DNA from: a virus
DNA: 64,000 nucleotides
Virus record (IMG/VR): IMGVR_UViG_3300022752_000057
Coordinates: 7,103 to 71,102 of that record
Direction: 5' to 3' (one strand)
Shown here piece by piece: positions 27,282 to 60,604 of this stretch (its first letter is position 1; each line of letters starts with the position of its first letter). The translations under genes were made by a program, and so were the position numbers. The notes below the pieces were generated by a model. That model ran no database searches and had not been told where the DNA came from. It worked only from the letters and a program-made list of their open reading frames with translations.

Positions 27282-27427
27282 TGCAAGTCCCCAATCGCTA
27301 CCACCACTCTAAGAAGGAGCAGAAGCGGAAACTGAAACCGCAAGCACTCCGACAAGCAAAGGCACGACGCCAAGCACTCAAGAAGCGTCTCTCACAAGGA
27401 GACGCTTCTTATTTTATAAATAACTAA
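27281..27427 (+). CDS. Small basic hypothetical protein (48 aa)
   Basis: MQVPNRYHHSKKEQKRKLKPQALRQAKARR...; coupled to the g46 stop. Confidence 0.55.
   Translation: MQVPNRYHHSKKEQKRKLKPQALRQAKARRQALKKRLSQGDASYFINN
27380..27415 (+). terminator. Stem-loop/terminator
   Basis: AAGAAGCGTCTC-loop-GAGACGCTTCTT then ATTTT. Confidence 0.65.
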
Positions 27428-27442
27428 AAAGTATTTGTAAAG

Positions 27443-28168
27443 ATGAACTCACAAGAACTTCGTGCCCTTCAAGAAGCTTATAATCAAGTTTATGAACTTG
27501 ATGAAACACGCACAGATCCAAGAGGTCGCCCAGCTTCTGGTCCTATGAGTGTCTATGGTGGTCGTGGTCAAGATGCTGGTCCTGGTGGTTCTGGAAATGC
27601 TAATATTGATAGAATGGATGCTGCTCAAAGAAGAGTGAAGCAAACCCAACCTAAAAAAAAGGGAATGGCTGCTGACAGACTCTTTACAAAGTATTCCGCT
27701 AGACAGAAAGGAATGGAACACGGTGGTGAAGAAGGACCAGGACCAAATGCTCCAAGAAGAGGGGGGCGTTCTGGTCGTGGTGCAAATACTGATAGGGGGA
27801 GTGGAAATGCTGCAGCACGTAGAATGAGAGAAGAGTTTGAAGGTGACCTCTTTGATTTCATTCTTGAGCACCTAGTTGCTGAAGGTTATGCTGATACAAA
27901 TGAGGCAGCTCTTGCTATTATGGCGAATATGAGTGAAGAGTGGAGAGAAGAGATTGTTGATGAAGGATATAAAAAACTTCCTGTAGGCAAAATGATAAAC
28001 CAATCTGCAAGGCATAGCAATCCAAAACGAGTTGCAAAAATGGGCAAGGTCGCTGATGCTCATAATCCTGATAGATCTCAAAGAAAAGAGGACGATAATA
28101 GACGAACAGGAGGACGTAAAAGAGATACTGGAAGACCTAGAAGTAATGAACTTCAGGATAATTGGTAA
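27443..28168 (+). CDS. 'MSEEW'-family cassette protein, copy 1
   Basis: ELRALQEAY leader, Arg/Gly cargo, EGYADTNEAALAIMANMSEEW; TATAAATA at 27415. Confidence 0.8.
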   Translation: MNSQELRALQEAYNQVYELDETRTDPRGRPASGPMSVYGGRGQDAGPGGSGNANIDRMDAAQRRVKQTQPKKKGMAADRLFTKYSARQKGMEHGGEEGPGPNAPRRGGRSGRGANTDRGSGNAAARRMREEFEGDLFDFILEHLVAEGYADTNEAALAIMANMSEEWREEIVDEGYKKLPVGKMINQSARHSNPKRVAKMGKVADAHNPDRSQRKEDDNRRTGGRKRDTGRPRSNELQDNW

Positions 28169-28268
28169 ATTAAAATCTTAATGGTTGAAGACCACTTTTC
28201 AAACTGGCACACTAGAGGGTCTCACCACCCTCTTTTTTTGTATGATAGTTCCATAAGAAATCAAATCT

Positions 28269-30455
28269 ATGACCGTCCGCTACGAAATCAAGTCCCAACT
28301 TGCTAAACTTCTTGCCACTGAAGACCTTGTGGTTGAGCATAAAAAGGTATCCACTGCTTGCTTTAACGTTCATACCCGTGTGCTGACCCTGCCTCTGTGG
28401 GAGAAGGCAAGCAACACCGTTTATGACCTTTTGGTGGGTCACGAGGTCGGTCACGCTCTCTATACGCCTGATGAGGATTGGTTGCAGGAGCACAAGATTC
28501 CACCTCAGTTTGTGAATGTGGTTGAGGATGCTCGTATTGAGAAATTGATGAAGCGTCGTTATGCTGGTCTTGCTAAGACTTTCTTTAATGGTTATCGGGA
28601 ACTTGCCGACGAAGATTTCTTCCAGATTGGTGATGATAATCTGGAAACTTATAATCTTGCCGACCGTGCTAACCTGTGGTTCAAGATTGGAAACTATATT
28701 GATATTCCGATTGAGCGTGGTGAAGAGACTGAAATTATCAACCTGATTGCCGATACTGAATCTTTTGCTGATGTTCTGATTGCTGCAGAGGCACTTTACA
28801 AGTATTGTAAGCAAAAGCAGCAGGAAGAAACCAAAACTTCTTTGGATAATCTTGAATCTCAGCAAAGTGGTGCAGATAATCAACCTGCTTCTGATTTTAG
28901 TAACCAGCAGGAAGGTGAGAATGAACAGGAGCAACCTGGAGAAACTGATTCTTATGGTGGAACTTCCGAACAGGATCAACAATCTACTCCTACTAATCAG
29001 GGTGGTGAGAAGGATGAAGAACCTGAAGTTCGCACCGCAGATTCTTTGGAAGATAAGATTCGTGATTTGGTAAATCAAGATGGTTATGAGAATGTTTATG
29101 TAGAGATTCCCAAAGTTAATCTTGATACTGTAATTGGTAAAAATGTTGATGTTCATAACGACATTGATTCTTGCTTTGCTCAACAACAAAAATCATATGA
29201 GGAAAATCTAAAAAGTAATTACAAACACCTTCCTATTGATAGTTTGTTCTTGGATGCAGACGAAGGGTACAAAAAGTTTAAACTGTCCGCACAGAAAGAG
29301 GTCAATTATCTGGTAAAAGAGTTTGAGTGTCGCAAGGCAGCAGATCAATATGCTCGTGCTTCAACTGCTCGCACTGGTGTTCTTGATACGTCTCGTTTGC
29401 ATTCTTACAAATATAGTGAAGATCTCTTTAAAAAAGTCACTGTAGTTCCTGATGGAAAAAATCATGGACTCGTATTCATTTTGGATTGGAGTGGTTCCAT
29501 GCAGAACGTTTTACTTGATACTTGCAAACAACTTTTTAACCTTATTTGGTTTTGTAAAAAAGTTTCAATTCCCTTTGAGGTCTATGCTTTTACAAATGAG
29601 TGGCGGCGTGGTGAATATGATTATTCAACGGGAACTGTTAAAGCAGCAGATCGAACCTCTCATTATGAAAAGAAAGAGGGATTGATTTGTGTAGATGAAA
29701 CTTTTTCTCTCATGAATCTTCTTACTAGTAAGGTTTCTGGTAAGCAACTTGAGCATCAAATGTTAAATGTCTGGCGTCTTGCAGTATGTTTTTCTAATAC
29801 TTATCGCTCTGCTTATACATATCCTAATCGTCTATGTCTTTCTGGAACTCCTTTGAATGAGGCACTGATTTCTCTTCATCAAATTCTTCCCAAGTTCCAA
29901 AAAGAAAACAAACTTCAAAAAGTTCAGTGCATTGTGCTGACTGATGGTGAAGCAAATTATCTTCCCTATCATGTTGAGGTAAAACTTGGTTGGGAATCTG
30001 AACCTTATCTTGGTGTTCGTGGAGTAAATCCAGATAAAACTTTTCTTCGAGATCGTAAACTTGGAACAACATATACTGTTGGACGTGGATATCATGAGTT
30101 CACTGAGGTTATTCTTCGCAATTTAAAGGACAAGTTTTCTTCAGTAAACTTTATTGGAATTCGTGTTCTTGAGGGACGTAATGTAAACCGTTTTATTAGC
30201 ATGTATCACAAAATTGGTGATAAACAATATGAAAAAATCCAAAATGATTGGAAAAAACTGAGAAGTTTTACCGTTACTAACTCTGGGTATGATGCTTACT
30301 TTGGACTTTCAGCGTCAGCACTTTCTCAAGATACAGAGTTTGATGTTGCTGAAGATGCCACTAAATCTCAAATCAAATCTGCCTTTGTGAAGTCTCTGAA
30401 GACTAAGAAACTCAATAAAAAGGTTTTGGGGGAATTCATTTCACTCGTTGCATAA
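28269..30455 (+). CDS. HEXXH peptidase-like + VWA (CobT-like) protein
   Basis: HEVGH, NVVEDARIE, LDWSGSM MIDAS, GTPL, LTDGE. Confidence 0.85.
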   Translation: MTVRYEIKSQLAKLLATEDLVVEHKKVSTACFNVHTRVLTLPLWEKASNTVYDLLVGHEVGHALYTPDEDWLQEHKIPPQFVNVVEDARIEKLMKRRYAGLAKTFFNGYRELADEDFFQIGDDNLETYNLADRANLWFKIGNYIDIPIERGEETEIINLIADTESFADVLIAAEALYKYCKQKQQEETKTSLDNLESQQSGADNQPASDFSNQQEGENEQEQPGETDSYGGTSEQDQQSTPTNQGGEKDEEPEVRTADSLEDKIRDLVNQDGYENVYVEIPKVNLDTVIGKNVDVHNDIDSCFAQQQKSYEENLKSNYKHLPIDSLFLDADEGYKKFKLSAQKEVNYLVKEFECRKAADQYARASTARTGVLDTSRLHSYKYSEDLFKKVTVVPDGKNHGLVFILDWSGSMQNVLLDTCKQLFNLIWFCKKVSIPFEVYAFTNEWRRGEYDYSTGTVKAADRTSHYEKKEGLICVDETFSLMNLLTSKVSGKQLEHQMLNVWRLAVCFSNTYRSAYTYPNRLCLSGTPLNEALISLHQILPKFQKENKLQKVQCIVLTDGEANYLPYHVEVKLGWESEPYLGVRGVNPDKTFLRDRKLGTTYTVGRGYHEFTEVILRNLKDKFSSVNFIGIRVLEGRNVNRFISMYHKIGDKQYEKIQNDWKKLRSFTVTNSGYDAYFGLSASALSQDTEFDVAEDATKSQIKSAFVKSLKTKKLNKKVLGEFISLVA

Positions 30456-30478
30456 ATATCTAAAAAGTATCTACCAAT

Positions 30479-30991
30479 ATGAAAACTTTTCAAGAGTTTG
30501 TATCTGAATGTCATTCCATTCAAGAGACTTCTCTTACTCGCGTAATGAGTAAGTCTCAAAAAGGTGGAATGGCAATTATGTCTGCTCAAAGAGGAGACAA
30601 ATCAAAAGCAGAAAACAAAGCACGTTCAAGACAACTTGAGAGAGATGTAAGAGGTGCTGGTCTTCCTGGACCTACCAAAGTTTCTGGTAGATATACTGAA
30701 AATCCTGGAACTCCTCAAGAGACAAAGGTAGGTGAAAAATCTCACATCATTACTCCTGGCAAAAAAGGTAAAAGAAAGTTTAAAAAAACAATTGAAAAAC
30801 TTGGTAAAAAATACAATCAAGATTCCGTATTAATTCAGCGTAAACCTGGTGGAAGTTCAACTCTTAAAGGAACTTCTAAAACATCTTGGCCAGGCAAAGG
30901 TAAAAATGTTACAATAGGAAGTATGAAGCCAGGTAGAACTGGTGAATTTGATACTAAAGTTAAGAACAAAACATTTACAGTTGAACAATGA
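30479..30991 (+). CDS. Basic protein with capsid-targeting-like leader
   Basis: MKTFQEFVSE..IQE then Lys-rich body, KYNQDSVL. Confidence 0.75.
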   Translation: MKTFQEFVSECHSIQETSLTRVMSKSQKGGMAIMSAQRGDKSKAENKARSRQLERDVRGAGLPGPTKVSGRYTENPGTPQETKVGEKSHIITPGKKGKRKFKKTIEKLGKKYNQDSVLIQRKPGGSSTLKGTSKTSWPGKGKNVTIGSMKPGRTGEFDTKVKNKTFTVEQ

Positions 30992-31173
30992 AATCTAAAT
31001 TTCCATTTGACCATGTAGTCAAGTATGATACCAAAGAGGTTTGGGTAAAGTGTGATAGTGCAATTACCGCAATGGGTATTCCTGCCATGGTTGAAAGGTA
31101 CTATCCTGGATACAAGGGTCATTGTGGCAGCAAGGAATATCTTGAGACACTCCGAAACCAGTTGGCAAACTGA
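30988..31173 (+). CDS. Hypothetical protein (61 aa)
   Basis: Overlapping ATGA start; plausible ORF. Confidence 0.6.
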   Translation: MKSKFPFDHVVKYDTKEVWVKCDSAITAMGIPAMVERYYPGYKGHCGSKEYLETLRNQLAN

Positions 31174-31238
31174 CCACTAGGGGTCTTTGAGACCCCCTTT
31201 TTGCTTTATAATGACTTCAGTTAAAACAAACACACATT

Positions 31239-32339
31239 ATGTCTCGCATTCAAATGACCGACGATCAAATTATCAACGATTTAAAATCTACCTTTGGTAA
31301 AGAGTTTACTGCTGCTGATGTTCGCGGTTATTGTGTTTCTAAAAATCTTTCCTATCCTACTGTAACCAAACGACTGGAAAACTTTAAAGTAGGTCGTGGT
31401 AAATGGAATCTCGAAGTCACTCAACAAAAAATTCAGCAGATCGAACGCTCTTATCAATCTCCCGCCGTTCTTCCTGTTGTGGAAAAAAACCTTATTCCCG
31501 ATAAAGATGATACCTTCGTCAAGTTTGGTAATTTTAATGATATTAAAAAAATTATTCAGTCCCGTCTTTTTTATCCAACGTTTATTACGGGTCTTTCGGG
31601 TAATGGTAAGACGTTTAGCGTTGAGCAAGCTTGTGCTCAACTGAAACGTGAACTAATTCGTGTTAACATTACTGTCGAAACTGATGAAGACGATCTGATT
31701 GGTGGTTTCCGTCTTGTGAACGGTGAAACTGCTTGGCATAATGGTCCTGTAATTGAGGCACTGGAGCGTGGTGCAATTTTGCTTCTGGATGAGATTGACC
31801 TTGCCTCCAACAAGATTCTTTGCCTACAATCTGTTCTCGAAGGTAAAGGTGTTTTCCTGAAGAAGATTGGTCGCTTCGTGAAACCTTCTGATGGTTTTAA
31901 TGTGATTGCTACTGCAAACACCAAAGGCAAGGGTTCTGATGATGGTCGATTTATCGGCACCAACGTGCTCAATGAGGCGTTCCTGGAGCGGTTCCCTGTG
32001 ACCTTTGAGCAGTCTTATCCTGCTCCTGTTGTTGAGCAGAAGATCCTTGAGGGCATCGCTCTGGATCTTGGAGTTGAGGACCGAGACTTCTGCAAGCGGT
32101 TGGTTGATTGGTCGGACGTGATCCGTAAAACGTTCTACGATGGTGGTATTGAGGAAATTATCAGCACCCGTCGCTTGGTTCATATTATCCGTGCTTATAG
32201 CATCTTTAACGATAAGGCAAAGGCAATCCAAGTATGTGTCAATCGTTTTGATGATGAGACCAAGCAATCATTCTTGGAACTCTATGATAAGATTGATGTT
32301 AACTTCCAACTTCCTGTTGACCAGAAAGACCCTTTCTGA
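31239..32339 (+). CDS. cobS: CobS/MoxR-like AAA+ ATPase
   Basis: GLSGNGKT, LLLDEID, ATANTKGKG, AFLERF, ISTRRL. Confidence 0.9.
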   Translation: MSRIQMTDDQIINDLKSTFGKEFTAADVRGYCVSKNLSYPTVTKRLENFKVGRGKWNLEVTQQKIQQIERSYQSPAVLPVVEKNLIPDKDDTFVKFGNFNDIKKIIQSRLFYPTFITGLSGNGKTFSVEQACAQLKRELIRVNITVETDEDDLIGGFRLVNGETAWHNGPVIEALERGAILLLDEIDLASNKILCLQSVLEGKGVFLKKIGRFVKPSDGFNVIATANTKGKGSDDGRFIGTNVLNEAFLERFPVTFEQSYPAPVVEQKILEGIALDLGVEDRDFCKRLVDWSDVIRKTFYDGGIEEIISTRRLVHIIRAYSIFNDKAKAIQVCVNRFDDETKQSFLELYDKIDVNFQLPVDQKDPF

Positions 32340-32345
32340 TATAAT
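32317..32345 (+). promoter_or_regulatory. Sigma70-like promoter
   Basis: TTGACC-17 nt-TATAAT. Confidence 0.65.
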
Positions 32346-32379
32346 TGGGGAAGGTAAATTATGACCCTTCCCCTTTATT

Positions 32380-32907
32380 ATGGACGAGTATCCTTATTCA
32401 AACAACGATTGGAATTTAATGCCCAACCTATCAAATCAAGACTTTTGGGAAGAAGATGGAATTAGTTTGACTGGAAATCCCAATGCTTCACCAGACATGC
32501 TTGTTCTTGGATCTAGACTTCCTGGTGGACTGGGAGATGATCACCTGACTTTGAATTCACCTTACACCTTTAATCTTAATATGAGCGAATCTACAAATCA
32601 TCTTTGGAAATACAATGAGGATAAAATCCTCAAAGATGTTGAGGAGTATGTGACTAGCACTTATCACGGTCATTACTGTGGAGATGAAGATGGCTACAGC
32701 GATATCCAAACTATTGACTTAATGGCAGCGAAGAAACTTGCTGCTGGTTTTTGCCAGGCAAACATTCTCAAGTATGGAAGCCGTTATGGTGATAAGGATG
32801 GTCGCAACAAGCGTGACTTGATGAAAGTTATTCACTATGCTATGCTCCTGCTCCACTTTGACGGTCATTATACTCGCAAAGATAATGGTCTTACTGAATT
32901 CCGTTGA
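32380..32907 (+). CDS. Conserved hypothetical protein (DUF3310-like)
   Basis: TYHGHY, GFCQANILKYGSRYG.K, DLMKVIHYA. Confidence 0.7.
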   Translation: MDEYPYSNNDWNLMPNLSNQDFWEEDGISLTGNPNASPDMLVLGSRLPGGLGDDHLTLNSPYTFNLNMSESTNHLWKYNEDKILKDVEEYVTSTYHGHYCGDEDGYSDIQTIDLMAAKKLAAGFCQANILKYGSRYGDKDGRNKRDLMKVIHYAMLLLHFDGHYTRKDNGLTEFR

Positions 32908-32909
32908 TT

Positions 32910-45642: not shown

Positions 45643-46158
45643 ATGTACTTTTCTGAGTGGAGAAAACAACAAAGGTTGAGAGAAGGTCTCAACCTTTTTA
45701 AACTACCAGCACATCAAATCACAGCAAAAGATTTTGATAAAATTGTGTCAGTGTTTGTTCCTTATGCAAAAAAATATTTGAAACTCAGAACTACACCAAA
45801 AATTAATTTTGTTAAAGATCAAAAATTTGCCAGTAAAGTTGGTGCATTTGGACAAATCAACGGTAAAAATCAAATTACCATTGATATTTTAGATCGGCAT
45901 CCTATGGATATTTTAAGAACTCTTTCTCACGAATTAGTTCATTTAAAGCAGCATGAGAGTGGAAAAAATGGATCTGGACATGTTGGCAGCGATACTGAAA
46001 ATGAATCTAATATGATTGCGGGTATACTGTTGAGAAAATTTGGTGCTGAGTATTCGGAACTATTTGAGTTGTCTTCTATAAAAGAAGAAGAGAAAAAGAA
46101 AAGAAAGATTAAGTCAAAAATAGATGACTATGAACATTATCCGGTAGAACTAGTTTGA
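45643..46158 (+). CDS. Zincin-like metallopeptidase domain protein
   Basis: DILRTLSHELVH..ENE.N (HEXXH plus downstream Glu). Confidence 0.75.
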   Translation: MYFSEWRKQQRLREGLNLFKLPAHQITAKDFDKIVSVFVPYAKKYLKLRTTPKINFVKDQKFASKVGAFGQINGKNQITIDILDRHPMDILRTLSHELVHLKQHESGKNGSGHVGSDTENESNMIAGILLRKFGAEYSELFELSSIKEEEKKKRKIKSKIDDYEHYPVELV

Positions 46159-46188
46159 TTTATAAATAACTAAAAAGTATTTGTAAAA

Positions 46189-47121
46189 ATGGATCCTAAA
46201 GAACTGCGTGGTTTAATGGAAGCATATTCAGAAGTTTATGCTCCTGCTGATGAACTTTATGAGGGATATATGAGTCCTGAAAAAAAGATTAAACCATCTC
46301 CAACTCGTGGTGGACGCCCAACTGGAGATATGAGAAAACCATATAATGATACTATGAGAAGACAGGATCAATTGGCAATATCAAAAGGAAAACCATATAA
46401 TGATAAAGTAAAAAAGGACAGTCCAATTCAGTATAAAAGTAATGAAGAGTATGTTGGCGAAGCAAAGAGAGTCCAAATGTATGGACAATCTGGAATGAGT
46501 AGTGATTATGATGAAAGAAACTTAAAAAATAGAGGCGATTTAAGTAAGAGAGATGCTGGATCAATCGCAAGATCACGATTAAAAGGTGAACCATCCGCAG
46601 TAGGTAGAGTAAGAGGATCTTCGCCTCACATTGACGGGCGTCGTATTAATAATGAAGAAGTAGATTTTTACGATATTGTTCTTTCATATCTCCTTGATGA
46701 GGGATATGCGGAAACAGCAGAAGCAGCAGAAGCCATTATGGTGAATATGAGTGAAGAGTGGAGAGATAGTATTCTTGATGAAGCATATGTTGATTATAGA
46801 AGAGGAAAATTACCTAGTGGTAGAACTCCTCAACAAGCAGCAAAAGGAAGAGAAAGTGCTCTAAAAGCAAGACAAAAAAAAGATGAAGTTCTTGGAAAAG
46901 GGAGCAACCCCGAAACCTACCAACAAAGAGGTAGATTGTCGAAGCAAAGTGATACAGTTTCCCAAATGGATCGCGCCACTACTCTTGGTTCAAGATTTCC
47001 TACCCGTGGGAATCCAGGTATTGTAAGAGGTGAACCAAATACTGGTCGTCATCAATCTGCAATTACTAAGAGAGACGCAATCAAAACATCGAAAGAAGCA
47101 GATAAAAAAACTAGAGGTTGA
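46189..47121 (+). CDS. 'MSEEW'-family cassette protein, copy 2
   Basis: ELRGLMEAY leader, basic cargoes, DEGYAETAEAAEAIMVNMSEEW; TATAAATA at 46161. Confidence 0.8.
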   Translation: MDPKELRGLMEAYSEVYAPADELYEGYMSPEKKIKPSPTRGGRPTGDMRKPYNDTMRRQDQLAISKGKPYNDKVKKDSPIQYKSNEEYVGEAKRVQMYGQSGMSSDYDERNLKNRGDLSKRDAGSIARSRLKGEPSAVGRVRGSSPHIDGRRINNEEVDFYDIVLSYLLDEGYAETAEAAEAIMVNMSEEWRDSILDEAYVDYRRGKLPSGRTPQQAAKGRESALKARQKKDEVLGKGSNPETYQQRGRLSKQSDTVSQMDRATTLGSRFPTRGNPGIVRGEPNTGRHQSAITKRDAIKTSKEADKKTRG

Positions 47122-47826: not shown

Positions 47827-47857
47827 CTTCTAAATACTTGAAAAGTATTTGAGTATT

Positions 47858-48811
47858 ATGTCATCAAACACTCCTGGAGCTGATATTAATGAAATACACC
47901 TTTCCGTCCTTTTAAATGGAAACTCTTATCCGGATGCTACTACCCAACAAAAATTTTCACAAAGAGTTTCGAGTTTACTAAAACAAAATAAACGATCTGA
48001 AGTTTTAGATCAAGAAGGAAGAGCAGTGGCTCAATATAATAAATTTGTAGAATTTCTTAAAAATAAAAATATGGGATCCCCGGTGAATGCGTGGTGGACT
48101 GCTAGACCCGGATTTTCATTTAATTCTGTCATTGGATTTTCAGTCGATCAAAGAAAAAACCCTACAGATGTTTTAGTTAAGACAGATAAAGGTATTTTTT
48201 ATGGCATATCTGCAAAATCAACTAAGGCAGGAAAAACTGGATTTAAAAATCCAGGGATGGGAGCCATACAAACATCTTTAGGGTTAGGTTCTACAAAACC
48301 ATTCGATGCCATCATATCAAAATATAAATCTCAGTTGCTTTCTTCTGAACCAGCGTTGCAAAGTATTGCTGATAGTGATACTGCTAGAAATGCTTATTTC
48401 AAGAGTAATGAATCCTGGTATAAAACAAATATTATACCTGTGTACGCTTATCCTTGTTATGAAGAATTGAGAGATTATCTATACAATCATTTAACAACTA
48501 AAATGGAAGTGTGGGAGCAACAGGTATTTTTGGGTCATGATTTTTTAAATGAAGATGAAGAAACTATGAAACTTCCCTACGTTAAAATTACAGGTAGCGG
48601 ACAAAATGGAAAATATACTGCATCTCTTTTTGATCCAATAGCAGAATCTAAAATGACAAAAATTATTGCATATGGTGCGACTTTTGAAAAGAAAATTACT
48701 ACTGCACAAAATAGCATTCAAGTAAAGGCAAATAATCAAGACTTATTTCAAATTAGGTGGAAATTTGGCGAAAGAGCTTTTGCCTCTTCTATGAAATTGG
48801 AGGGAGCGTAA
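47858..48811 (+). CDS. Putative PD-(D/E)XK-fold (restriction-like) endonuclease
   Basis: DINE..., NPTDVLV..YGISAK pattern; weak motif evidence only. Confidence 0.55.
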   Translation: MSSNTPGADINEIHLSVLLNGNSYPDATTQQKFSQRVSSLLKQNKRSEVLDQEGRAVAQYNKFVEFLKNKNMGSPVNAWWTARPGFSFNSVIGFSVDQRKNPTDVLVKTDKGIFYGISAKSTKAGKTGFKNPGMGAIQTSLGLGSTKPFDAIISKYKSQLLSSEPALQSIADSDTARNAYFKSNESWYKTNIIPVYAYPCYEELRDYLYNHLTTKMEVWEQQVFLGHDFLNEDEETMKLPYVKITGSGQNGKYTASLFDPIAESKMTKIIAYGATFEKKITTAQNSIQVKANNQDLFQIRWKFGERAFASSMKLEGA

Positions 48812-48844: not shown

Positions 48845-50125
48845 ATGAAGAGTTTTTTCCAATTTTTATCTGAAGCAGCTGAGTCGCAAGCAGCGATGCA
48901 GGCGAAGAAACTTGGTTTGCGTGGAGATGGGCATGGCGGATGGGTAGATCGTGCTGGAAAATATGTTGCAAGAACTGAGAAAGGAAAACTTGAATTTATT
49001 AATAAAAGACAAGCGGGGCAGCAACAACCAACAGCAGAGAAGCAACCTGCAGGATCCGCTCCAACTGCACAACCTCAAGCAGCACAAGCACCAGCCCCAG
49101 CAGCACCACAAGCACCTGGAGCAACCCCACAAGGTCAGGAACAACCACAAGAATTCCCTCCACTGACTGTTGTATTTGGTCGTTTTAACCCACCAACGGT
49201 TGGTCACGAAAAACTTCTGAAGTCTGCAAAGAGAATTTCTGCTGGTGGAGACATTAAGATCTATCCATCAAGAACTGTAGATCCAAAGAAAAATCCACTG
49301 GATCCCAATAAAAAAGTTTCGTTTATGAAGAAGATGTTCCCTGAGTTTAAGGACAACATCATTAACGATGATGAAATGAAGAGTATTTTTAACGTTTTAA
49401 TTACTGCAAATGAAGATGGATATGCTACTGTTAATATAGTAGTTGGTTCAGATCGTCAAGCAGAATTTGAGAATCTTGCACAGAAGTATAATGGAGATCT
49501 TTACAATTTTGATTTAATTCGTGTCGTTTCTGCTGGTGTTCGTGATGCTGATGCTGAGGGTGTAGAGGGAATGTCAGCATCTAAAATGAGAAAGGCAGTA
49601 ATGGATGATGACTTTGATTCATTCCGCAGAGGAACACCAAAAACACTTGATGATGGAGATACACAAAATCTGTTTAATGCAGTTCGTCAAGGAATGGGAG
49701 TAAAGAAAACAAAGGTTAAAAAAGAATCATACTCTCTTTGGGAGATTGCTCCAAAGTATGATATGAGAAATCTTCGTGAGAATTATGTAAGAGGAAAAAT
49801 TTTTAGAATTGGCGATAAAGTTCAGAACTTAAATACTGGATTGATTGGTGAAGTCATGCGTAGAGGAACCAATCATTTAATCTGTGTGACCGAAGAAGGA
49901 TATATGTTTAAGTCTTGGATTAAAGATTTGATGGAATATACTGAAGTCAAGATGGATAAAATGTATAGATTACCAGGAAAACCCAATACACTTGCAGGTA
50001 CAACTGGATATTTAAAGTATGCAGTCCAACAAACTCCTGGATCAAAACTTGGAAAGGAAAACCTCCAACAGGGTGGTAGAGCATTTTTGGATTTCATAAA
50101 TAAGTATAAGGTAAAAAGTAAGTAG
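48845..50125 (+). CDS. HIGH-family nucleotidyltransferase (cytidyltransferase-like) with capsid-targeting-like leader
   Basis: FGRFNPPTVGH, VVGSDR, MSASKMR; MKSFFQFLSE start. Confidence 0.85.
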   Translation: MKSFFQFLSEAAESQAAMQAKKLGLRGDGHGGWVDRAGKYVARTEKGKLEFINKRQAGQQQPTAEKQPAGSAPTAQPQAAQAPAPAAPQAPGATPQGQEQPQEFPPLTVVFGRFNPPTVGHEKLLKSAKRISAGGDIKIYPSRTVDPKKNPLDPNKKVSFMKKMFPEFKDNIINDDEMKSIFNVLITANEDGYATVNIVVGSDRQAEFENLAQKYNGDLYNFDLIRVVSAGVRDADAEGVEGMSASKMRKAVMDDDFDSFRRGTPKTLDDGDTQNLFNAVRQGMGVKKTKVKKESYSLWEIAPKYDMRNLRENYVRGKIFRIGDKVQNLNTGLIGEVMRRGTNHLICVTEEGYMFKSWIKDLMEYTEVKMDKMYRLPGKPNTLAGTTGYLKYAVQQTPGSKLGKENLQQGGRAFLDFINKYKVKSK

Positions 50126-50132: not shown

Positions 50133-52424
50133 ATGTCTATCAATCCTCTGAATGATATTTCTAGAGTTTATCTGGAGCAGGTTGCTGTACAAGATGGTGA
50201 TCTTGATGAAGGAATGACAATGAAAGACTTCAAGCAACAAAGAAGTCGTCAAAAGCAAAAAGAAAAGAGAGCAGCAGATAAGATTGCTCCAGGGCGTAGA
50301 GCAGGTATGTCTTCATATGAAAGAGCAGTAAGACATCGTGCTAATGTGGACCCTGATTATGATTATGGTGATGAAGAAAGAGATTATCCTGGTGGAATGA
50401 CTAAAAATCCTAAAAAGGTTCGTAAGGCAAAAGCACTTGGAGAACTTGGTGAGTCTTCACATCTTGAGACTGATATGAAGAAACGTGCAGAAGCAAATGA
50501 AAAGGCACGTAAAGAAATTATGAAAACCAAAGCTCATGCTGATATGGTGAAGGCAGCAAGAAAGCACTTTAATGAAGCAAAGAAAGGCGATGGTAACTTA
50601 GCAAATAACTACCCACCATATGATAAGGTCACCAGAGGAGATGTAATTGCTGGTGCTCTTGGAAAAGATGAAATGGGTGGTAAGAAAAAGAAAAAGGTAG
50701 AGGAAGGTAATGATGGTAACTTAGCAAACAACTATCCTCCATATGATAAGGTTACCAGAGGAGATGTGATTGCTGGAAGACTTGGTAAGGATCAAATGGG
50801 TGGTAAGAAAAAAGTAACTAAAGAAGGTTTCTCAAACTGGAGACAAGATCTTTCTGAGATAGTATCTCAAATTGAAGGGGATAAAAAAATTACAGAAAAG
50901 AAAGTACAAAACAAAATTACTATTAATCCAAAACTTGGCGAATCAGTAGAAGAACTGGGTGGAACTCTTCTTGAGATGGTAGAAATTGATGAGTTTGATT
51001 TTATTGTTGAGTCTGCATATGATGAACTTCTTGATGAAGGGTATAGTGAGGATGACATTGAGGAAGCACTTGAGTATGCATTGACTGAAGCAAAAGTTAC
51101 CTTTGGGCATGATACTCCTGTTGAGAAAAAAAGAAATGGTCTTTTAGATGCAGCAAGAAAAAAACTTTCTGGAGTTAAAAAGGCAGCAAAGCAAGCAGTA
51201 TCAACTGGAGCAAGAAAAGTTGCTAAAGGTGCTTTAAGTGTTGCTCGTAAGATAGAAGGTGGAGATAAATCTCCAAGTGCAGCACATACAAAAACAAGAA
51301 GTGCATCAACTTATCGTGGTGCAGGTACGGGAACAAAGGAAAGAGTAAGTAGTGGTTCTTATACTCCACCTGCTAAGAAGAAAGCAGAGAAACCTGCTGA
51401 TCCTTGGGAGGGAAGTGCAACGACTCCTGCAAAACCAAAAACTAAAAAAGCAACAGCACCAAAAGCAAAAGCACCTACTGCAACCAAGAGAAAGAGAAAG
51501 TCTAAGTTGGATGATCTACTTGCTTCAGTAAGAAGTGAGAGTGTAATCAGTGATAGGGCAAAGAGAGTTGTTGGTGCTCAACGAGGTGGTTATCACGGTG
51601 ATGATGATGAAATGAATCACCTCCAAAGTGCTGCTCAAAAATCAGTTAACAAAGCAACAAGCGGTAGTAATGTATCCAGAGCATCTGCATCTATTGCCGC
51701 AAAGAGAGCAGAAAAAACTGCAAGAGCAATGCATCCAAAACCAGGTGTTGGTGGTTATCGCATTGAGGGAACTCAGATTGATGAAAAAACTTTAACTGCC
51801 AGTGAGAAAAAAAAGAGAGAAGAAATAGCACAGTCAATGGATCTTGCTGATTTTGAAAGACGTTATCCTGGTCGTGGAATGGAAGTGAAGATGGCTACTG
51901 CCACAAAAATGGCAAAAAAGATGGTAGAGCAGGCAATGGAACTGCAACCAAAAACACAATCTTCACAAAAACCAGATCAGCAACAAAAAAAAGTGCAGCA
52001 ACAACAAGATAGAATGAAACAGCAAGAAGTTCAAATTCTTCAAAGAAAACTTCAGGCTTTGAGATCTGCCCCTAAGGGAACTGATCCATCAATTATGGCA
52101 TCATATGAACCAGAAGGTGAAATGGTTGATGAATCAAGAGCAGAAGAAAAGAGAGGTCTTGGTTCCACTGGAGCACTAAGACAAAGACAAAAGACAAAAA
52201 TCGGAGGTTATAATCCAGCAACTGGGCATTCTGGAGGACAAAATCCTCATCTAAGAGGTAAAGGTGGTGGAACCAAAGAACAAAGAAGAGCAGCAAGTCG
52301 TAGATATGTAGATCAACCAGGTGGAGTTTATGCTGCACCTGAAAACGAACAGGGTAAAGGTAGATATGTTGGTATGCAATATAAGAAAAGAGATCAATCT
52401 CATATGCATTCGAGATTTGATTGA
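50133..52424 (+). CDS. Large modular basic/acidic protein, likely virion-internal polyprotein
   Basis: 763 aa; Lys/Arg-rich modules separated by LDE/LGE/LTE/IDE/VDE linkers. Confidence 0.75.
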   Translation: MSINPLNDISRVYLEQVAVQDGDLDEGMTMKDFKQQRSRQKQKEKRAADKIAPGRRAGMSSYERAVRHRANVDPDYDYGDEERDYPGGMTKNPKKVRKAKALGELGESSHLETDMKKRAEANEKARKEIMKTKAHADMVKAARKHFNEAKKGDGNLANNYPPYDKVTRGDVIAGALGKDEMGGKKKKKVEEGNDGNLANNYPPYDKVTRGDVIAGRLGKDQMGGKKKVTKEGFSNWRQDLSEIVSQIEGDKKITEKKVQNKITINPKLGESVEELGGTLLEMVEIDEFDFIVESAYDELLDEGYSEDDIEEALEYALTEAKVTFGHDTPVEKKRNGLLDAARKKLSGVKKAAKQAVSTGARKVAKGALSVARKIEGGDKSPSAAHTKTRSASTYRGAGTGTKERVSSGSYTPPAKKKAEKPADPWEGSATTPAKPKTKKATAPKAKAPTATKRKRKSKLDDLLASVRSESVISDRAKRVVGAQRGGYHGDDDEMNHLQSAAQKSVNKATSGSNVSRASASIAAKRAEKTARAMHPKPGVGGYRIEGTQIDEKTLTASEKKKREEIAQSMDLADFERRYPGRGMEVKMATATKMAKKMVEQAMELQPKTQSSQKPDQQQKKVQQQQDRMKQQEVQILQRKLQALRSAPKGTDPSIMASYEPEGEMVDESRAEEKRGLGSTGALRQRQKTKIGGYNPATGHSGGQNPHLRGKGGGTKEQRRAASRRYVDQPGGVYAAPENEQGKGRYVGMQYKKRDQSHMHSRFD
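50589..50812 (+). repeat. Tandem duplication, 123-nt period (DGNLANNYPPYDKVTRGDVIAG.LGKD.MGGKKK x2)
   Basis: Copies begin at 50589 and 50712. Confidence 0.9.
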
Positions 52425-53939: not shown

Positions 53940-54114
53940 GGAGCAAATGGTCGCAAATGCTCCTGGGGGAAGTGGTGGATTTTCTGGATCTTCGGATCCA
54001 AAAGGTCCGACAGCAGGATTTGATCCTGTAATTAATATGGGAAAAAGAAAACGTCCACAAATAATTGGTAAAGGAAAATTTCCTGGATTAAGAAAACGCT
54101 GGTCTAAAATCTAA
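53899..54114 (+). CDS. Small hypothetical protein
   Basis: IKE/QMVANAPGGSGGF..AGFDP. Confidence 0.6.
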   Translation: MEKKKLDWIISIIKEQMVANAPGGSGGFSGSSDPKGPTAGFDPVINMGKRKRPQIIGKGKFPGLRKRWSKI

Positions 54115-54133
54115 AAATAAAGGAAATCCAAAA

Positions 54134-54556: not shown

Positions 54557-54568
54557 TAACTTTTTATA

Positions 54569-55540: not shown

Positions 55541-57837
55541 GTAACGGAACTAAAGTTAAAAAGCGTGATGGAAGAATTGAGTCTCTTGACCTAGATAAGA
55601 TGCATTTGATGGTAGAAGAGGCATGTAGAGGTCTTGCGGGCGTCTCTGCGAGTCAAGTTGAGATTACCTCAGGTATACAGTTTTACAATGGTATTACAAC
55701 CGAAGAGATTCAGGAGATTTTGATTCGGTCTGCTTCTGATTTGATTGATCTAGATCATCCAAATTATCAATATGTTGCTGCCCGTTTGCTTCTTTTTGCT
55801 ATTCGCAAGCAACTTTATGGGAAGATGAAAGAACTTCCTTCACTTGAACAACACATTTATGCTTGCATTAATGCTGAGGTTTATGATAACGATATTTTTA
55901 ACAAATACTCTAAAGAAGAAATTGAACGTGCTGATTCGTTTCTTGATCATGATCGTGATTATTTGTTTACTTATGCTGGATTGCGTCAAGTTGTTGACAA
56001 ATATCTTGTGCAAGATAGAAGCACTGGGGGTGTTTATGAAACGCCACAGTTTATGTACATAATGATTGCTTTGACCATTTTTGCAGAATATCCTAAAGAA
56101 GTCCGAATGTCATATGTACGGAGGTACTATGACGCAATCTCCAAACACAAAATCAATATTCCAACTCCTATCATGGCAGGAGTTAGAACACCACTTCGTC
56201 AATTTGCAAGTTGCGTTCTTGTTGATGTTGATGACACTCTCGATAGCATCGGCAGTAGTGATTTGGCAATTATGCGATATGTCTCTCAAAGGGCAGGAAT
56301 CGGCATCAACGCAGGCAGAATTCGTGGTATTAACAGCAAAATCAGAGGCGGAGAAGTTGCTCATACTGGGGTTATCCCATTCCTCAAGAAGTTCGAGGCA
56401 ACTGTCAGATGCTGTACACAGAATGGCATCAGAGGTGGAAGCGCAACGGTCCACTTTCCAATCTGGCACCAGGAAATAGAAGATATTCTTGTTCTAAAAA
56501 ATAATAAAGGAACGGAGGACAATCGTGTCAGGAAACTTGATTATAGCATTCAAATCAGTAAAATCTTTTATGAAAGATTCATTCAAGATGCTGAGATCAC
56601 ACTATTCTCCCCACATGATGTCCCTGGACTTTATGATGCTTTCGGAACAGACAAGTTTGACGATCTCTACGTTTCATATGAAAAAGATTCGTCCGTTAAG
56701 AAAAAAACTGTTAAAGCGCAAGAACTCATTCTTAACCTTCTCAAAGAACGTGCAGAAACTGGTCGTATCTATATTATGAATCTTGACCACTGCAATTCTC
56801 ACTCTTCCTTTAAAGACAAAGTTGAGATGAGTAACTTGTGCCAAGAAATTACTCTTCCAACTTATCCAATTCAACATATTGATGACCAAAATGGAGAAAT
56901 TGCACTTTGCATTCTTTCTGCCATTAATGTTGGAAAAGTAAAGTCTGATGAGGAACTTGAGGAACTTTGTGAACTTTCAGTTCGTGGACTTGATGAGTTG
57001 ATTGATTATCAAAAATATCCCGTAGCAGCAGCAGAAATCGCTACCAAGGCACGTCGTTCTCTTGGTATTGGATTCATTGGTCTTGCACACTATTTGGCAA
57101 AACTTGGTTATAATTACGATTCACAACAAGCATGGGATGCTGTTCATGGTCTTTCTGAATCATTCCAATATTTTCTTCTGAAAGCATCTAATCAACTTGC
57201 TAAAGAAAAGGGACATTGTGAATACTTTGGACGTACTAAGTATTCTGATGGAATCCTTCCAATTGATACTTATAAAAAAGATGTAGACGAACTTTCATCA
57301 ATTCCATTGCAACATGATTGGGAAACTCTTAGAACCTCTATCTTGGAACACGGTCTCAGGCACTCAACATTGTCCGCACAGATGCCATCGGAGAGCAGTT
57401 CCGTTGTGTCAAACGCAACCAATGGAATCGAACCACCTAGAGATTACTTGTCCATTAAAAAATCAAAGAAAGGTCCACTTAAGCAAATTGTTCCTCAGTA
57501 CCAAACTCTTAAGAACAATTATACACTTTTGTGGGATATGCCTAGCAATCGTGGTTATATTAATATTGTTGCAGTTATGCAAAAATTCTTCGATCAAGCG
57601 ATTTCTGGAAACTGGTCCTATAATCCAGAAAATTATGACAATAATGAAGTTCCTACTTCAGTGATGGCAAATGACTTTTTGACTACATACAAGTATGGGT
57701 GGAAAACTTCTTACTATCAGAATACCTACGATATTAAAACTGATGAAGTGATTGAAGAAAAGAAACCCAATCTTCAAGATTTACTAAGTGAATTAAGTTC
57801 AGTAGAGGAGGGAGAGTGTGAATCCTGTGCAGTTTAA
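55537..57837 (+). CDS. nrdA: Ribonucleotide reductase class Ia alpha
   Basis: ATP cone VKKRDG, QFASCVL, SNLCQEI, MPSESS, CESCAV. Confidence 0.97.
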   Translation: MSNGTKVKKRDGRIESLDLDKMHLMVEEACRGLAGVSASQVEITSGIQFYNGITTEEIQEILIRSASDLIDLDHPNYQYVAARLLLFAIRKQLYGKMKELPSLEQHIYACINAEVYDNDIFNKYSKEEIERADSFLDHDRDYLFTYAGLRQVVDKYLVQDRSTGGVYETPQFMYIMIALTIFAEYPKEVRMSYVRRYYDAISKHKINIPTPIMAGVRTPLRQFASCVLVDVDDTLDSIGSSDLAIMRYVSQRAGIGINAGRIRGINSKIRGGEVAHTGVIPFLKKFEATVRCCTQNGIRGGSATVHFPIWHQEIEDILVLKNNKGTEDNRVRKLDYSIQISKIFYERFIQDAEITLFSPHDVPGLYDAFGTDKFDDLYVSYEKDSSVKKKTVKAQELILNLLKERAETGRIYIMNLDHCNSHSSFKDKVEMSNLCQEITLPTYPIQHIDDQNGEIALCILSAINVGKVKSDEELEELCELSVRGLDELIDYQKYPVAAAEIATKARRSLGIGFIGLAHYLAKLGYNYDSQQAWDAVHGLSESFQYFLLKASNQLAKEKGHCEYFGRTKYSDGILPIDTYKKDVDELSSIPLQHDWETLRTSILEHGLRHSTLSAQMPSESSSVVSNATNGIEPPRDYLSIKKSKKGPLKQIVPQYQTLKNNYTLLWDMPSNRGYINIVAVMQKFFDQAISGNWSYNPENYDNNEVPTSVMANDFLTTYKYGWKTSYYQNTYDIKTDEVIEEKKPNLQDLLSELSSVEEGECESCAV

Positions 57838-59005
57838 GATTTCTTCCACGGAAGAACAACCACAAATTAAAGGAATGACGGTTTTTAATACTGAGCAAGT
57901 GAATACAAAAAAACAACCGATGTTTTTTGGAAAACCTTTAGGTATTCAACGTTATGATTCATACAAATATCCGATCTTCGATAAACTGACTACCCAACAA
58001 TTAGGATACTTTTGGAGACCCGAAGAGGTGTCTCTTCAAAAGGATCGTGGAGATTATCAAACACTACGTCCAGAGCAGAAACACATTTATACATCTAATT
58101 TAAAGTATCAAATTATGCTTGATTCCGTTCAGGGTCGTGGTCCTGGTATGGCATTTATTCCATATTGCTCACTTCCTGAATTGGAAGCATGTATGGAAGT
58201 ATGGGGATTTATGGAAATGATTCATAGTCGCTCATACACATACATCATTAAAAATGTCTATTCAGATCCATCTGAGGTGTTTGATACTATCATCACAGAT
58301 GAGCGTATTCTGGAGCGTTCTAGAAGCGTTACAGAGTCATATGATGATTTTATTCAATCAGCACAAAATTATGCAACATCTAGCGATTGGATGTATAATC
58401 TTGAGAGATCACAAAACACAAAGGAAACACTCAATGATGTCAAACGAAAACTGTACAGAGCAGTCGCAAACGTTAACATTCTTGAAGGTATTCGGTTCTA
58501 CGTTAGTTTTGCTTGTAGTTTCGCCTTTGGTGAACTTAAGCTTATGGAAGGATCCGCTAAAATCATCAGTCTTATTGCAAGAGATGAAAACCAACATTTA
58601 GCCCTCACTCAAAATATTTTAAATAAGTGGAAAGAGGGTGATGATCCTGAAATGCAAAAAATTGCAAAAGAAGAGGAAGAGTGGGTGTATAAAATGTTTG
58701 ATCGCGCTGTAAATGAAGAAAAAAGATGGGCAGATTACCTGTTCAGAGATGGCAGCATGATCGGACTCAATGATAAATTATTACAACAGTATGTCGAATG
58801 GATTGCAAACCGTAGACTAAAGGCAATCGGACTCAAACCCCAATATGATATTCCAGCAAACAACAATCCACTTCCTTGGACTCAGCACTGGATTTCCTCC
58901 AAAGGTCTCCAGGTGGCACCCCAAGAAACTCAAGTGCAGTCGTATGTGGTTGGTGGAATCAAACAAGATGTCAAAAAGGATACATTCAGTGGGTTTAAGC
59001 TTTAA
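57818..59005 (+). CDS. nrdB: Ribonucleotide reductase class Ia beta
   Basis: FWRPEEV, EMIHSRSY, EGIRFY, RDENQH, VAPQE..SY. Confidence 0.97.
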   Translation: MNPVQFKISSTEEQPQIKGMTVFNTEQVNTKKQPMFFGKPLGIQRYDSYKYPIFDKLTTQQLGYFWRPEEVSLQKDRGDYQTLRPEQKHIYTSNLKYQIMLDSVQGRGPGMAFIPYCSLPELEACMEVWGFMEMIHSRSYTYIIKNVYSDPSEVFDTIITDERILERSRSVTESYDDFIQSAQNYATSSDWMYNLERSQNTKETLNDVKRKLYRAVANVNILEGIRFYVSFACSFAFGELKLMEGSAKIISLIARDENQHLALTQNILNKWKEGDDPEMQKIAKEEEEWVYKMFDRAVNEEKRWADYLFRDGSMIGLNDKLLQQYVEWIANRRLKAIGLKPQYDIPANNNPLPWTQHWISSKGLQVAPQETQVQSYVVGGIKQDVKKDTFSGFKL

Positions 59006-59065
59006 TTGACTTTAAGACTGAAATAGTGTATTATATAAATAATAATAGGTAAGTTCAGTCTTAAA

Positions 59066-59680
59066 ATGAATAACTATATTCTTTACTATTACTTAAGGGA
59101 GGACTTTGGTTCTCCCTTTTATGTTGGTTATGGAAAACCAAGAAGAATTAACTCTAGACACTCTAGAAGAAATGGTGCTGAAATTTTACCACCAAGAGAA
59201 AGAAGGTGGATTGTAAAATCTGGATTGAGTAAAGAGGAAGCAATAGAACTTGAGATAAAACATATAGCACTCTGGAAAAGAGAATGTGATGGTGGAGTTC
59301 TATTAAATCAAAATCTTGGTGGTGAAGGAAAACCTGGAGGACAAAGGACGAAGGGATTTAGTGGAAGAAAACATAGTGAAGAAGCAAAGAAAAGAATAAG
59401 TGAAAAGGTTGCTGGTAAGAATAATCCAAGATATGGAGTTAAATTATCGCAAGAGACAAGAAATAAGATAAGTCAAAATAGAGCACCAAAGTTTGGTAAA
59501 GATAATCCAAACTCTAAAACTTGGAAGATTGTTTCTCCAGAAAATAAAGAGTATATTATTACTGGAGCATTAAAAGAGTTTTGTAAGTCTCAAAATATTT
59601 CATATGCTACTATGCACGCAGCAATTCTTTATGATAGAAAAGGACCCAGAAAAAATGGATGGAGTATTGAGAAAGTTTAG
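59066..59680 (+). CDS. Free-standing GIY-YIG (Seg-like) homing endonuclease with NUMOD3 repeats
   Basis: YYYLRED..FYVGYGK..R, LE..HI, LLN...GGEG, GRKHSEEAKKRISE. Confidence 0.85.
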   Translation: MNNYILYYYLREDFGSPFYVGYGKPRRINSRHSRRNGAEILPPRERRWIVKSGLSKEEAIELEIKHIALWKRECDGGVLLNQNLGGEGKPGGQRTKGFSGRKHSEEAKKRISEKVAGKNNPRYGVKLSQETRNKISQNRAPKFGKDNPNSKTWKIVSPENKEYIITGALKEFCKSQNISYATMHAAILYDRKGPRKNGWSIEKV

Positions 59681-60068
59681 AATATCACTGCCAGAAGATG
59701 AGTGTGTAGTAAAACTTCAGGAGTATTGTAAGTTTTCTCATACTCTTTTAAAAGTTCCTGTAGTACTTAAACCTTTATGTGCTGATGCAAACTGCCACAA
59801 TAATGTAAATCATTATGTGAATACTTATGGCGGAGAAAAAATAAGTGGATATTATCTAATCACAGATGTTGGTGATGACACTTATGGGTGTGCGATATAT
59901 CATAGTATTTGGAAGAATACTTATGGAGACTTGATAGATATAACACCATTTGATGATGGAAGAGAATATAATATGTTCTCTGTACTGGATGCTACAGATT
60001 ATTACTCTGGAGTTTCTTATGATGGGAAGGTTTATAAAATATTAGAACCAGGACTAAATGTTGTTTAG
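59655..60068 (+). CDS. Hypothetical protein
   Basis: NCHNNV..GG...GY..HSIW..LIDITP; overlaps the end of the endonuclease gene. Confidence 0.65.
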   Translation: MDGVLRKFRISLPEDECVVKLQEYCKFSHTLLKVPVVLKPLCADANCHNNVNHYVNTYGGEKISGYYLITDVGDDTYGCAIYHSIWKNTYGDLIDITPFDDGREYNMFSVLDATDYYSGVSYDGKVYKILEPGLNVV

Positions 60069-60097
60069 AATATAAATATTTAAAAAGTAGTTGTAAA

Positions 60098-60604
60098 ATG
60101 GACGCACAAGAATTACGCAATCTTCAAGAAGCATATGTGGAAGTTGCTATGAATGAAGGTTTAAGAGTTTTTCCTAGGGAAAAGATGCAATCTAAGGCAA
60201 CATCTAAAAGATTAAAAGCACTTGGAAGTGAATTAAAATCAAAATTTACAACAGCAAAAGGAACAACTGAGAGAAATATTATAGACGCAAAAAATAAAAA
60301 ACTTAGGTCGCAAGCAGATAAGATGGATAAGGTTGCTCATGAACATACTCCATCGGATTCACGAAATAAAGAAGAAAAAAATAGGGGAGGTTCATATAAT
60401 CCACGTAATCCTATGGGTTCCGATGAATATGCAGAGAGACAATTTGCAAAAAATCGTGCTATGTTGGGAATTCCAGAGCAAGTAGATATTTACGACATCA
60501 TCCTCTCACACCTTCTTGATGAAGGATATGCTGAAACTCAAGAAGCAGCAGAGGCTATTATGGTGAATATGAGTGAAGAGTGGAGAGATAGTATTATTGG
60601 ATAG
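60098..60604 (+). CDS. 'MSEEW'-family cassette protein, copy 3
   Basis: ELRNLQEAY leader, basic cargo, DEGYAETQEAAEAIMVNMSEEW; TATAAATA at 60071. Confidence 0.8.
   Translation: MDAQELRNLQEAYVEVAMNEGLRVFPREKMQSKATSKRLKALGSELKSKFTTAKGTTERNIIDAKNKKLRSQADKMDKVAHEHTPSDSRNKEEKNRGGSYNPRNPMGSDEYAERQFAKNRAMLGIPEQVDIYDIILSHLLDEGYAETQEAAEAIMVNMSEEWRDSIIG

Follow-up and report, generated by a model that had tools for sequence, protein, structure and literature searches.

The closest known counterparts of the gene family described here are the internal proteins of phage T4, which carry a capsid-targeting sequence (CTS), and shuffling of the type mediated by promoter-early stem-loop (PeSL) cassettes. T4 internal proteins are described as basic, otherwise unrelated to each other, present in some 360 copies in each head and little conserved from one related phage to another, and they are made with N-terminal targeting propeptides of 10–19 residues that are removed by gp21 (PMC9026906). 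PeSL cassettes are reported to mediate modular shuffling in T4-type phages (PMC2839356, PMC4122927). The family in question is represented by three genes, A, B and C, in a stretch of viral DNA of 64,000 nucleotides (nt), positions 7,103 to 71,102 of IMG/VR record IMGVR_UViG_3300022752_000057, which is called the window in the following and to which all coordinates refer. Each gene couples constant parts, namely a 5' block, a leader and an acidic module, to basic segments that are called cargoes here. That these basic cargoes are exchangeable cassettes, swapped by recombination at the constant DNA blocks, is well supported. That the genes encode shuffled late-protein paralogues which are packaged in virions and cut by gp21 in the prohead is a joint reading that we consider on balance probable.

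How are the three genes built? Gene A (27443–28168, + strand) encodes a protein of 241 amino acids (aa) with a leader at residues 1–21, a basic cargo, the module at residues 133–175 and a basic tail; gene B (46189–47121, +) encodes 310 aa with leader, basic cargo, module at 157–199 and basic tail; and gene C (60098–60604, +) encodes 168 aa with leader, basic cargo and module at 128–168, ending G-stop with no tail. These borders rest on open reading frames (ORFs) and hidden Markov models (HMMs), for A also on AlphaFold2 (AF2). A 27-nt block, TATAAATANNNAAAAAGTANTTGTAAA, matches the window three times, at 27415, 46161 and 60071, each time directly before the ATG of one of the genes and with zero mismatches though up to three were allowed; none is expected according to 100 shuffles. 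It combines a T4-type late promoter, TATAAATA, with an untranslated leader and occupies 27415–27441 before A, 46161–46187 before B and 60071–60097 before C (all +), and between A and B the identity extends to 29 nt (27413–27441 and 46159–46187). The promoter motif TATAAATA itself occurs 12 times in the window, always on the + strand, with 5.6 expected. Since the sequence downstream of the other nine motifs is unrelated to the block, the 27-nt block is family-specific and more than a generic late promoter. In the protein leaders M1, E5, L6, R7, L9, E11, A12, Y13 and V16 are invariant across A, B and C, and the modules (27839–27967, +, in A, by HMM envelope and predicted helices) have 23 invariant residues in common between D135 and I171 in A numbering. 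The 39-nt core of the B module, IMVNMSEEWRDSI (46735–46773, +), is identical to 60557–60595 in gene C, and A agrees with it exactly over 24 nt (27925–27948) and with a difference of one base over 27917–27948.

The cargoes of the three proteins, with isoelectric points of 10.0–11.3, each begin behind a glutamate, the basic stretches being preceded by an [LIVM]xE tripeptide: LDE 19–21 and VDE 172–174 in A, LYE 23–25, VGE 89–91 and LDE 196–198 in B, and MNE 18–20 in C. One cargo appears on different sides of the module, as residues 201–222 of A, behind it, align with residues 75–96 of C, before it (12 of 22 identities, pairwise E 4e-5). Likewise, EGYKKLPVGKM behind the module of A resembles the cargo start NEGLRVFPREKM behind the leader of C. 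Every detail of the observation on which the original prediction was built, from the shared upstream block, leader and module to the identical and nearly identical core letters, the glutamates before the basic segments and the changed position of one cargo, is thus present in the sequence.

How general is this arrangement? A pattern search of IMG/VR matched at least 602 stretches, at least 427 of which encode a relative, and proteins from the best 80 of these were pooled with the three window proteins, 119 database matches and four isolate proteins to a set of 186 distinct proteins that is enriched for, and since A was the query biased to, A-like genes. HMMs for leader and module, which the original prediction had proposed as a means to count copies and measure cargo diversity across relatives, were built; they found the module in all 186 proteins (two modules in 12) and the leader, with the consensus M..[QK]E[LIV]R.L.EAY..VY, in 171, among them A, B and C. 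Cutting the proteins at the HMM borders yielded 370 cargo segments, which fall into 111 clusters, 70 of them singletons. Twelve of the 41 multi-member clusters are represented on both sides of the module. Of 43 pre-cargo clusters, 15 combine with two or more tail clusters, one even with 35, and 14 of 60 tail clusters have at least two pre-cargo partners. Where a cargo is joined to leader or module the junction is precise to one or two residues, and the cargoes compared are 80–92% identical. For example, one cargo stands behind ...VYQELDEAL in one protein and behind ...MSEEWRESIVEAL in another, with 91% identity over 57 residues; in the first protein it precedes the module, and the second protein ends there with G-stop. 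A cassette start motif, [YFL][KRN].[LF]P..K[MV], was found nine times after the leader, 24 times after the module and twice between two modules, from which it follows that the tail of A and the first cargo of C belong to one movable cassette type.

Moreover, the diversity is found at one and the same locus. Of the 60 family genes with readable context 43 lie, like A, in the gap between gp46 and a peptidase gene; the other sites are after the peptidase gene, in the interval between MazG and NMNAT like B, or beside homologues of an endonuclease-like ORF that neighbours C. In the gp46–peptidase gap the 43 genes carry 21 pre-cargo clusters and 29 tail clusters in 38 combinations. Vertical conservation of the cargoes at fixed loci, the pattern opposed to shuffling, is therefore not what this gap holds, because the combinations differ while the adjoining gp46 stays 67–90% identical to that of the window. 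At the DNA level, codon identity at same-residue positions was computed from the 64 modules with DNA. Ten codons of the I-M-x-N-M-S-E-E-W-R core could be scored; nine of them have values of 0.80–1.00, among them 1.00 for Ile, 0.97 for Asn and 0.91 for both Ser and Arg, and one variable position has 0.51. Most positions in the first half of the module have 0.30–0.80. These values fit a homogenisation of the crossover core at the DNA level, the module pairs not being independent of each other. On this evidence recombination at the constant blocks, among paralogues and between related phages, swaps cargoes, shifts them between the sites after the leader and after the module and fuses neighbouring genes into two-module proteins.

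The same pattern is seen in natural populations. The region 27200–28400 of the window was found in 20 runs, which belong to 12 studies and almost without exception carry the label of a freshwater, lake or aquatic metagenome. From three DNA runs, each of a different study (X2, X5 and X11), Logan contigs were aligned to this region at 85% likeness. Summed depth in X2, X5 and X11, respectively, was 222, 2197 and 4793 at the 5' block (27405–27445) and 239, 1283 and 17879 at the module (27897–27937), and it was 8, 51 and 0–3 in the pre-cargo (27528–27814) and 6, 69–197 and 154 in the tail (27979–28183). A likeness of 85% admits relatives and paralogues, and it is these that form the pile-ups. Loose contig ends gather at 27409–27416 before and 27462–27481 behind the 5' block, 27481 being the last base of codon 13 of gene A, and at 27844–27880 before and 27948 and 27960 behind the module core. 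One contig each in X2 and X5 matches 27341–27432 and 27870–27940, with 328 other letters in place of the 437 of the window. Within a sample, many genomes thus have the two handles in common and diverge in what lies between, with the reservation that contigs can be chimeric. Protein diversification by exchange of coding cassettes between fixed coding handles is in this way visible both in genomes and in the contigs of single lakes, and the recombinational shuffling that had been proposed from three genes alone holds in the wider sample.

Expression signals are likewise constant. Among 62 family genes with enough upstream DNA, 56 have [TA]ATAAATA within 60 nt upstream, and in 53 the distance from this motif to the ATG is 19–22 nt; the untranslated stretch CTAAAAAGTAnTTGTAAA recurs even in contigs whose proteins are only 35–45% identical to A. 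Promoters of this T4 type are read in T4 by the late sigma factor gp55. A gp55-type gene that would read the TATAAATA promoters lies in the window at 23715–24251 (+; phrog_234, E 2.7e-63), and the family genes would therefore be transcribed late. Contigs of a metatranscriptome library (X18) cover the end of gp46, the promoter region and the module (27200–27441 and 27851–27941) and not the cargo, uncovered parts being uninformative in this library. This hints weakly at transcription of family genes in lakes, since the library may contain DNA and its contigs cannot show transcript ends. The constant 5' block of each gene consists of the TATAAATA promoter, the untranslated leader of 19–22 nt and the first 13 or so codons. 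Such a block resembles a PeSL in that a repeated regulatory element is common to unrelated neighbours and marks the borders of DNA swapped between close relatives, and in that before gene A a hairpin accompanies the promoter. This terminator-like hairpin at the end of gp46, AAGAAGCGTCTC ... GAGACGCTTCTT followed by a T-run (27380–27414, +, read from the sequence), abuts the late promoter of A, and the junction of GACGCTTCTT, T-run and TATAAATA is also found 5' of many family genes in related contigs; in the 30 nt inspected upstream of B and C no comparable hairpin was seen. The family differs from PeSLs, which have an early promoter, in that its promoter is of the late TATAAATA type, so that an intergenic stem-loop with early promoter is not what is found here. 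It differs also in that the block reaches 13 codons into the coding region and in that the second crossover site is a coding module within the gene. Between gp46 and A a very basic ORF of 48 aa (27281–27427, +) overlaps hairpin and promoter, and in one related locus its homologue is fused in frame to the family gene.

How large is the family? With A as query, 1,719 proteins were found at E ≤ 0.01 among 2,233 candidates of 132–422 aa, and the 120 matches listed for A contain no Pfam domain and are nearly all unnamed or hypothetical. A profile of 61 members retrieved 3,919 representatives at E ≤ 0.001, 2,810 at 1e-10 and 774 at 1e-30 from a search space of 1.84 billion representatives of 50%-identity clusters. 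Among complete isolate genomes, module matches number four in S-SRM01 and in S-CRM01, three in S-SCSM2R, and two each in DSL-LC02 and P-SSM2, one of the latter weak; the contig of the window has three. The nearest clusters in the ESM Atlas are all viral hypothetical proteins, its structural matches having template modelling scores below 0.3. Pfam searches with A, B, C, a 763-aa protein discussed below, the 48-aa ORF and three further ORFs (ORF171, ORF320 and ORF154) gave nothing at cut-off. The module matches phrog_3708, of unknown function, with E-values of 3.1e-9 (A), 1.1e-6 (B) and 5.9e-5 (C), and the modules of A and B in addition match phrog_22522, also of unknown function; these profiles are 499 and 265 positions long, of which only about 50, the module, match, and they carry no functional name. 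Literature searches on capsid targeting, internal head proteins and the prohead protease of cyanophages retrieved the T4 review and an article on phage P1 but no description of such a family, and a tblastn search of S-CREM2, for which a virion proteome exists, found no member. The family is evidently very large, unnamed and virus-only, and with 3,919 clusters at 50% identity it ranks among the largest families without annotation in T4-like phages of aquatic habitats.

Charge and predicted structure separate the constant from the exchangeable parts. Across the 186 proteins the mean net charge per residue is −0.17 in the leader and −0.22 in the module, being positive in 1% and 0% of the cases, and +0.08 in the cargo before and +0.11 in the cargo after the module, where it is positive in 92% and 100%. 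AF2 on A with an alignment of 61 rows predicted a helix at residues 3–21, with a predicted local distance difference test score (pLDDT) of about 80, and module helices at 123–147, 153–161 and 165–178 with pLDDT 72–86, the remainder being of low confidence; the module alone was modelled as three helices at a mean pLDDT of 81.4. Each protein accordingly opens with an N-terminal helix that is acidic and amphipathic; a cargo that is basic and disordered follows, then the acidic three-helix module of some 43 residues and, in many cases, another basic cargo. A Foldseek search of the PDB with the module model returned nothing at E ≤ 0.001, the best hits being short pieces of RNA polymerase β' at E 1, and in a wide VIA-align search the best Z of 5.9 was within the noise for helical models. 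Prediction of a two-copy complex from an alignment of 57 module residues gave 0.39, 0.37 and 0.39, with the mark at 0.42 and controls at 0.12, 0.00 and 0.00. The module makes up the entire 51-aa protein PSSM2_140 of P-SSM2 and the N-terminus of the 530-aa ORF205 of S-SCSM2R. To judge by these models, it is an autonomous, confidently folded small domain and more than a crossover handle. The proposal that the constant blocks serve as crossover points is consequently to be amended: the shuffling is borne out, and the module is in addition a domain that can stand alone, as in P-SSM2. A reading of leader and cargo as leader and core of a ribosomally synthesised and post-translationally modified peptide was dropped, the cargoes being rich in Arg, Lys and Gly and disordered and no modification enzymes being linked to the genes.

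Are the proteins part of the virion? New in this analysis, besides the population evidence, is the link of the family to annotated virion proteins, which comes from the marine isolate S-SCSM1. Its protein SSCSM1_89 (323 aa), annotated as virion protein, is the positional counterpart of B, lying between MazG and NMNAT in the same neighbourhood, and aligns with B from end to end (E 6e-10). It has the leader MDSKTFNSLSEAYAAVYS, a match to the module profile (E 1e-9, 23.8 bits), the same charge pattern (−2/+12/−13/+16) and a similar AT-rich upstream block. SSCSM1_92, also annotated as virion protein, aligns from the N-terminus with a fourth relative in the window (E 5e-26), a basic and mostly low-complexity protein of 763 aa (50133–52424, +) encoded directly 3' of an NMNAT/cytidyltransferase-like gene (48845–50125). 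This 763-aa protein begins with a leader that has diverged, LNDISRVYLEQV...LDE, and has cargo in common with the family, at 69% identity over 88 aa with the tail of one member (E 9e-32), and further at 70% identity over 93 aa and at 48% over 77 aa; the module HMM gave no significant match in it or in SSCSM1_92, where an EGY helix is the only module-like element. A tandem duplicate, DGNLANNYPPYDKVTRGDVIAG.LGKD.MGGKKK, is found at about residues 153–185 and 193–225 of the 763-aa protein, and the unit is 82% identical in the marine Synechococcus phages QB2 and S-M1. The genes 90 and 91 of S-SCSM1, between 89 and 92, are likewise annotated as virion proteins; the synteny with the window is not gene for gene, since ORF320 (47849–48811) has no similarity to SSCSM1_90. 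In CsCl-purified particles of S-SCSM1, mass spectrometry detected 45 phage proteins, 13 of them of unknown function (PMC9602691). As both proteins, SSCSM1_89 and SSCSM1_92, carry a virion-protein annotation in a phage whose particles are reported to have been analysed by mass spectrometry, packaging in virions is plausible for the family.

The second element of the joint reading is cleavage by gp21, a gene for which, coding for the enzyme proposed to process the family, lies at 17265–17915 (+; phrog_207, E 6.7e-81). The 186 proteins contain 1,521 [LIVM]xE tripeptides compared to 748 ± 23 in shuffles. Three positions are conserved: one inside the leader, L.E[AS][YF] (152 of 159), one just behind it, mostly LDE (150 of 159), and one at most 14 residues behind the Trp of the module (180 of 180). 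The gp23 of the window (19240–20670, +) has LME|SP at residues 57–59, plausibly its maturation site. It may also be mentioned that gp22 (17970–19196, +) and gp23 have LQE at residues 7–9, comparable to LQE or LME at 9–11 of the family leader, a likeness that may be fortuitous or may point to a protease or targeting signal common to them. The parallel to the T4 proteins IPI, IPII, IPIII and Alt is close in logic: a short conserved N-terminal tag on unrelated basic proteins encoded by late genes, (L/I)xE-type sites behind the tag, a gp21 gene in the genome, a content that varies among relatives, and a family member annotated as virion protein in S-SCSM1. By this analogy the N-terminal helix would act like the CTS of T4 and load the proteins into the prohead core, gp21 would then cut at the conserved [LIVM]xE sites beside the acidic parts, and the basic pieces would stay beside the DNA in the head, either as its counter-ions or to be injected together with it. 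The family differs from the T4 internal proteins in the sequence of its leader, in having a second conserved element, the acidic three-helix module, and in the manner of variation, which in T4 consists of whole-gene swaps and here takes place within the gene, between two handles and on either side of the module. Its copies are also dispersed among core genes, and its processing and injection are proposed by analogy.

Several points weigh against packaging and processing. The [LIVM]xE motifs are part of amphipathic helices that are themselves conserved, and folding may be the sole reason why the motifs are kept, so that their presence is not proof of cleavage. No sequence similarity to T4 IPI, IPII or IPIII was found, Pfam giving no match and all PHROG matches at E < 0.01 being of unknown function. 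The leader is missing in 15 of the 186 proteins and the module stands alone in P-SSM2, so that the leader cannot be the only route to function. The virion link consists of the annotation of a single isolate and concerns counterparts, not A, B and C themselves; the S-SCSM1 authors caution that abundant late non-structural proteins may persist after CsCl purification (PMC9602691), and among the 23 proteins of the S-SCSM2R virion analysis the module-bearing ORF205 is not named. The claim of capsid packaging is partly supported, by SSCSM1_89 and SSCSM1_92, and tempered by possible carry-over. Lys/Arg-rich and possibly processed proteins would be poor tryptic targets; the S-SRM01 paper contains no virion proteomics.

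The caution of the S-SCSM1 authors and the absence of ORF205 from the virion proteins named for S-SCSM2R, together with cargoes that are basic and disordered and a module that is a small helical domain, are what speaks for the strongest alternative, in itself rather unlikely: the proteins could be abundant late proteins acting in the infected cell, for example by binding, compacting or coating DNA or RNA, and their detection in S-SCSM1 could be carry-over. It has to contend with the annotation not only of genes 89 and 92 of S-SCSM1 but also of the intervening 90 and 91 as virion proteins, and it leaves the conserved N-terminal tag with its [LIVM]xE, present in nearly all leaders, unexplained. 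Still less likely is an accessory role in the scaffold or core, as for T4 gp67 and gp68: the proteins would assist head assembly, be degraded by gp21 and mostly leave the head, the basic parts serving as weakly constrained spacers. The acidic helices do resemble scaffold chemistry, the gp22 of the window is highly acidic, the LQE near the N-termini of gp22 and gp23 would fit, and C weakly matches a head-scaffolding PHROG (E 0.014). On the other hand, single cargoes are 80–92% identical across genes and positions, which argues for selection on the cargo, and copy number and content vary freely among relatives, unlike those of essential core proteins. Very improbable, finally, is that the constant blocks are selfish recombination or homing targets and the genes hitch-hike with homing endonucleases and encode proteins of little function: C does lie between two ORFs matching homing-endonuclease PHROGs (59066–59680 and 60828–61274, +), 7 of the 60 family genes with context have a homologue of these flanking ORFs as the closest neighbour that could be recognised, and the synonymous sites of the core are frozen, but in the 186 proteins the reading frames are unbroken and the distribution of charge is strictly preserved, the module is predicted to fold confidently, and of the 43 genes in the gp46–peptidase gap at most two have an endonuclease homologue as nearest recognised neighbour. 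The ORF at 60828–61274 also matches a PHROG family named 'NAD synthetase'.

If, as the packaging reading holds, the proteins lie inside the head and enter the cell with the DNA, cyanophages would have in them an equivalent of the T4 internal proteins. The variability of the latter is linked to an arms race with host restriction, and the family would for this reason offer many candidate anti-defence or DNA-packing peptides. If the packaging reading is true, the constant leader could furthermore serve as a tag to load foreign proteins into cyanophage heads. A bolder version, which we regard as doubtful, sees in the family a natural combinatorial library: the handles, identical to each other as DNA, would reassort dozens of basic cassettes in co-infection, the protease would free them within the capsid, and each virion would inject along with its DNA a strain-specific mixture of small basic proteins for counter-defence or host takeover, the neighbouring homing endonucleases perhaps triggering the reassortment by homologous recombination.

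As to the genomic surroundings, the window is part of a 71-kb IMG/VR contig with a completeness rating of 37%, and the source phage is, on sequence grounds, a freshwater T4-like cyanomyovirus; among isolates the freshwater phage S-SRM01 is nearest, gp46 and the peptidase gene being about 75% identical in nucleotide sequence. The window contains gp18, gp19, gp20, gp21, gp22, gp23, UvsY, UvsW and gp55, and further gp47, gp46, gp41, MazG, NrdA and NrdB. Directly 5' of B an ORF of 171 aa (45643–46158, +), for which neither Pfam nor PHROG gave a match, contains an HExxH-like motif, HELVH, and several related contigs have its C-terminal ...VELV-stop immediately 5' of a family gene; the ORF could encode a small metallopeptidase associated with genes of the B type. 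In two related contigs a family gene has on either side a match to the gp41 helicase ORF of the window, as if the gene lay in or beside a split gp41. Elsewhere in the window, a homing-endonuclease-like ORF (9892–10461, +) with its own TATAAATA at 9876 directly precedes an ORF that matches the profile of the terminase large subunit only C-terminally (positions 450–630 of 807), which suggests that at 9892–11617 the terminase gene is interrupted by a mobile endonuclease.

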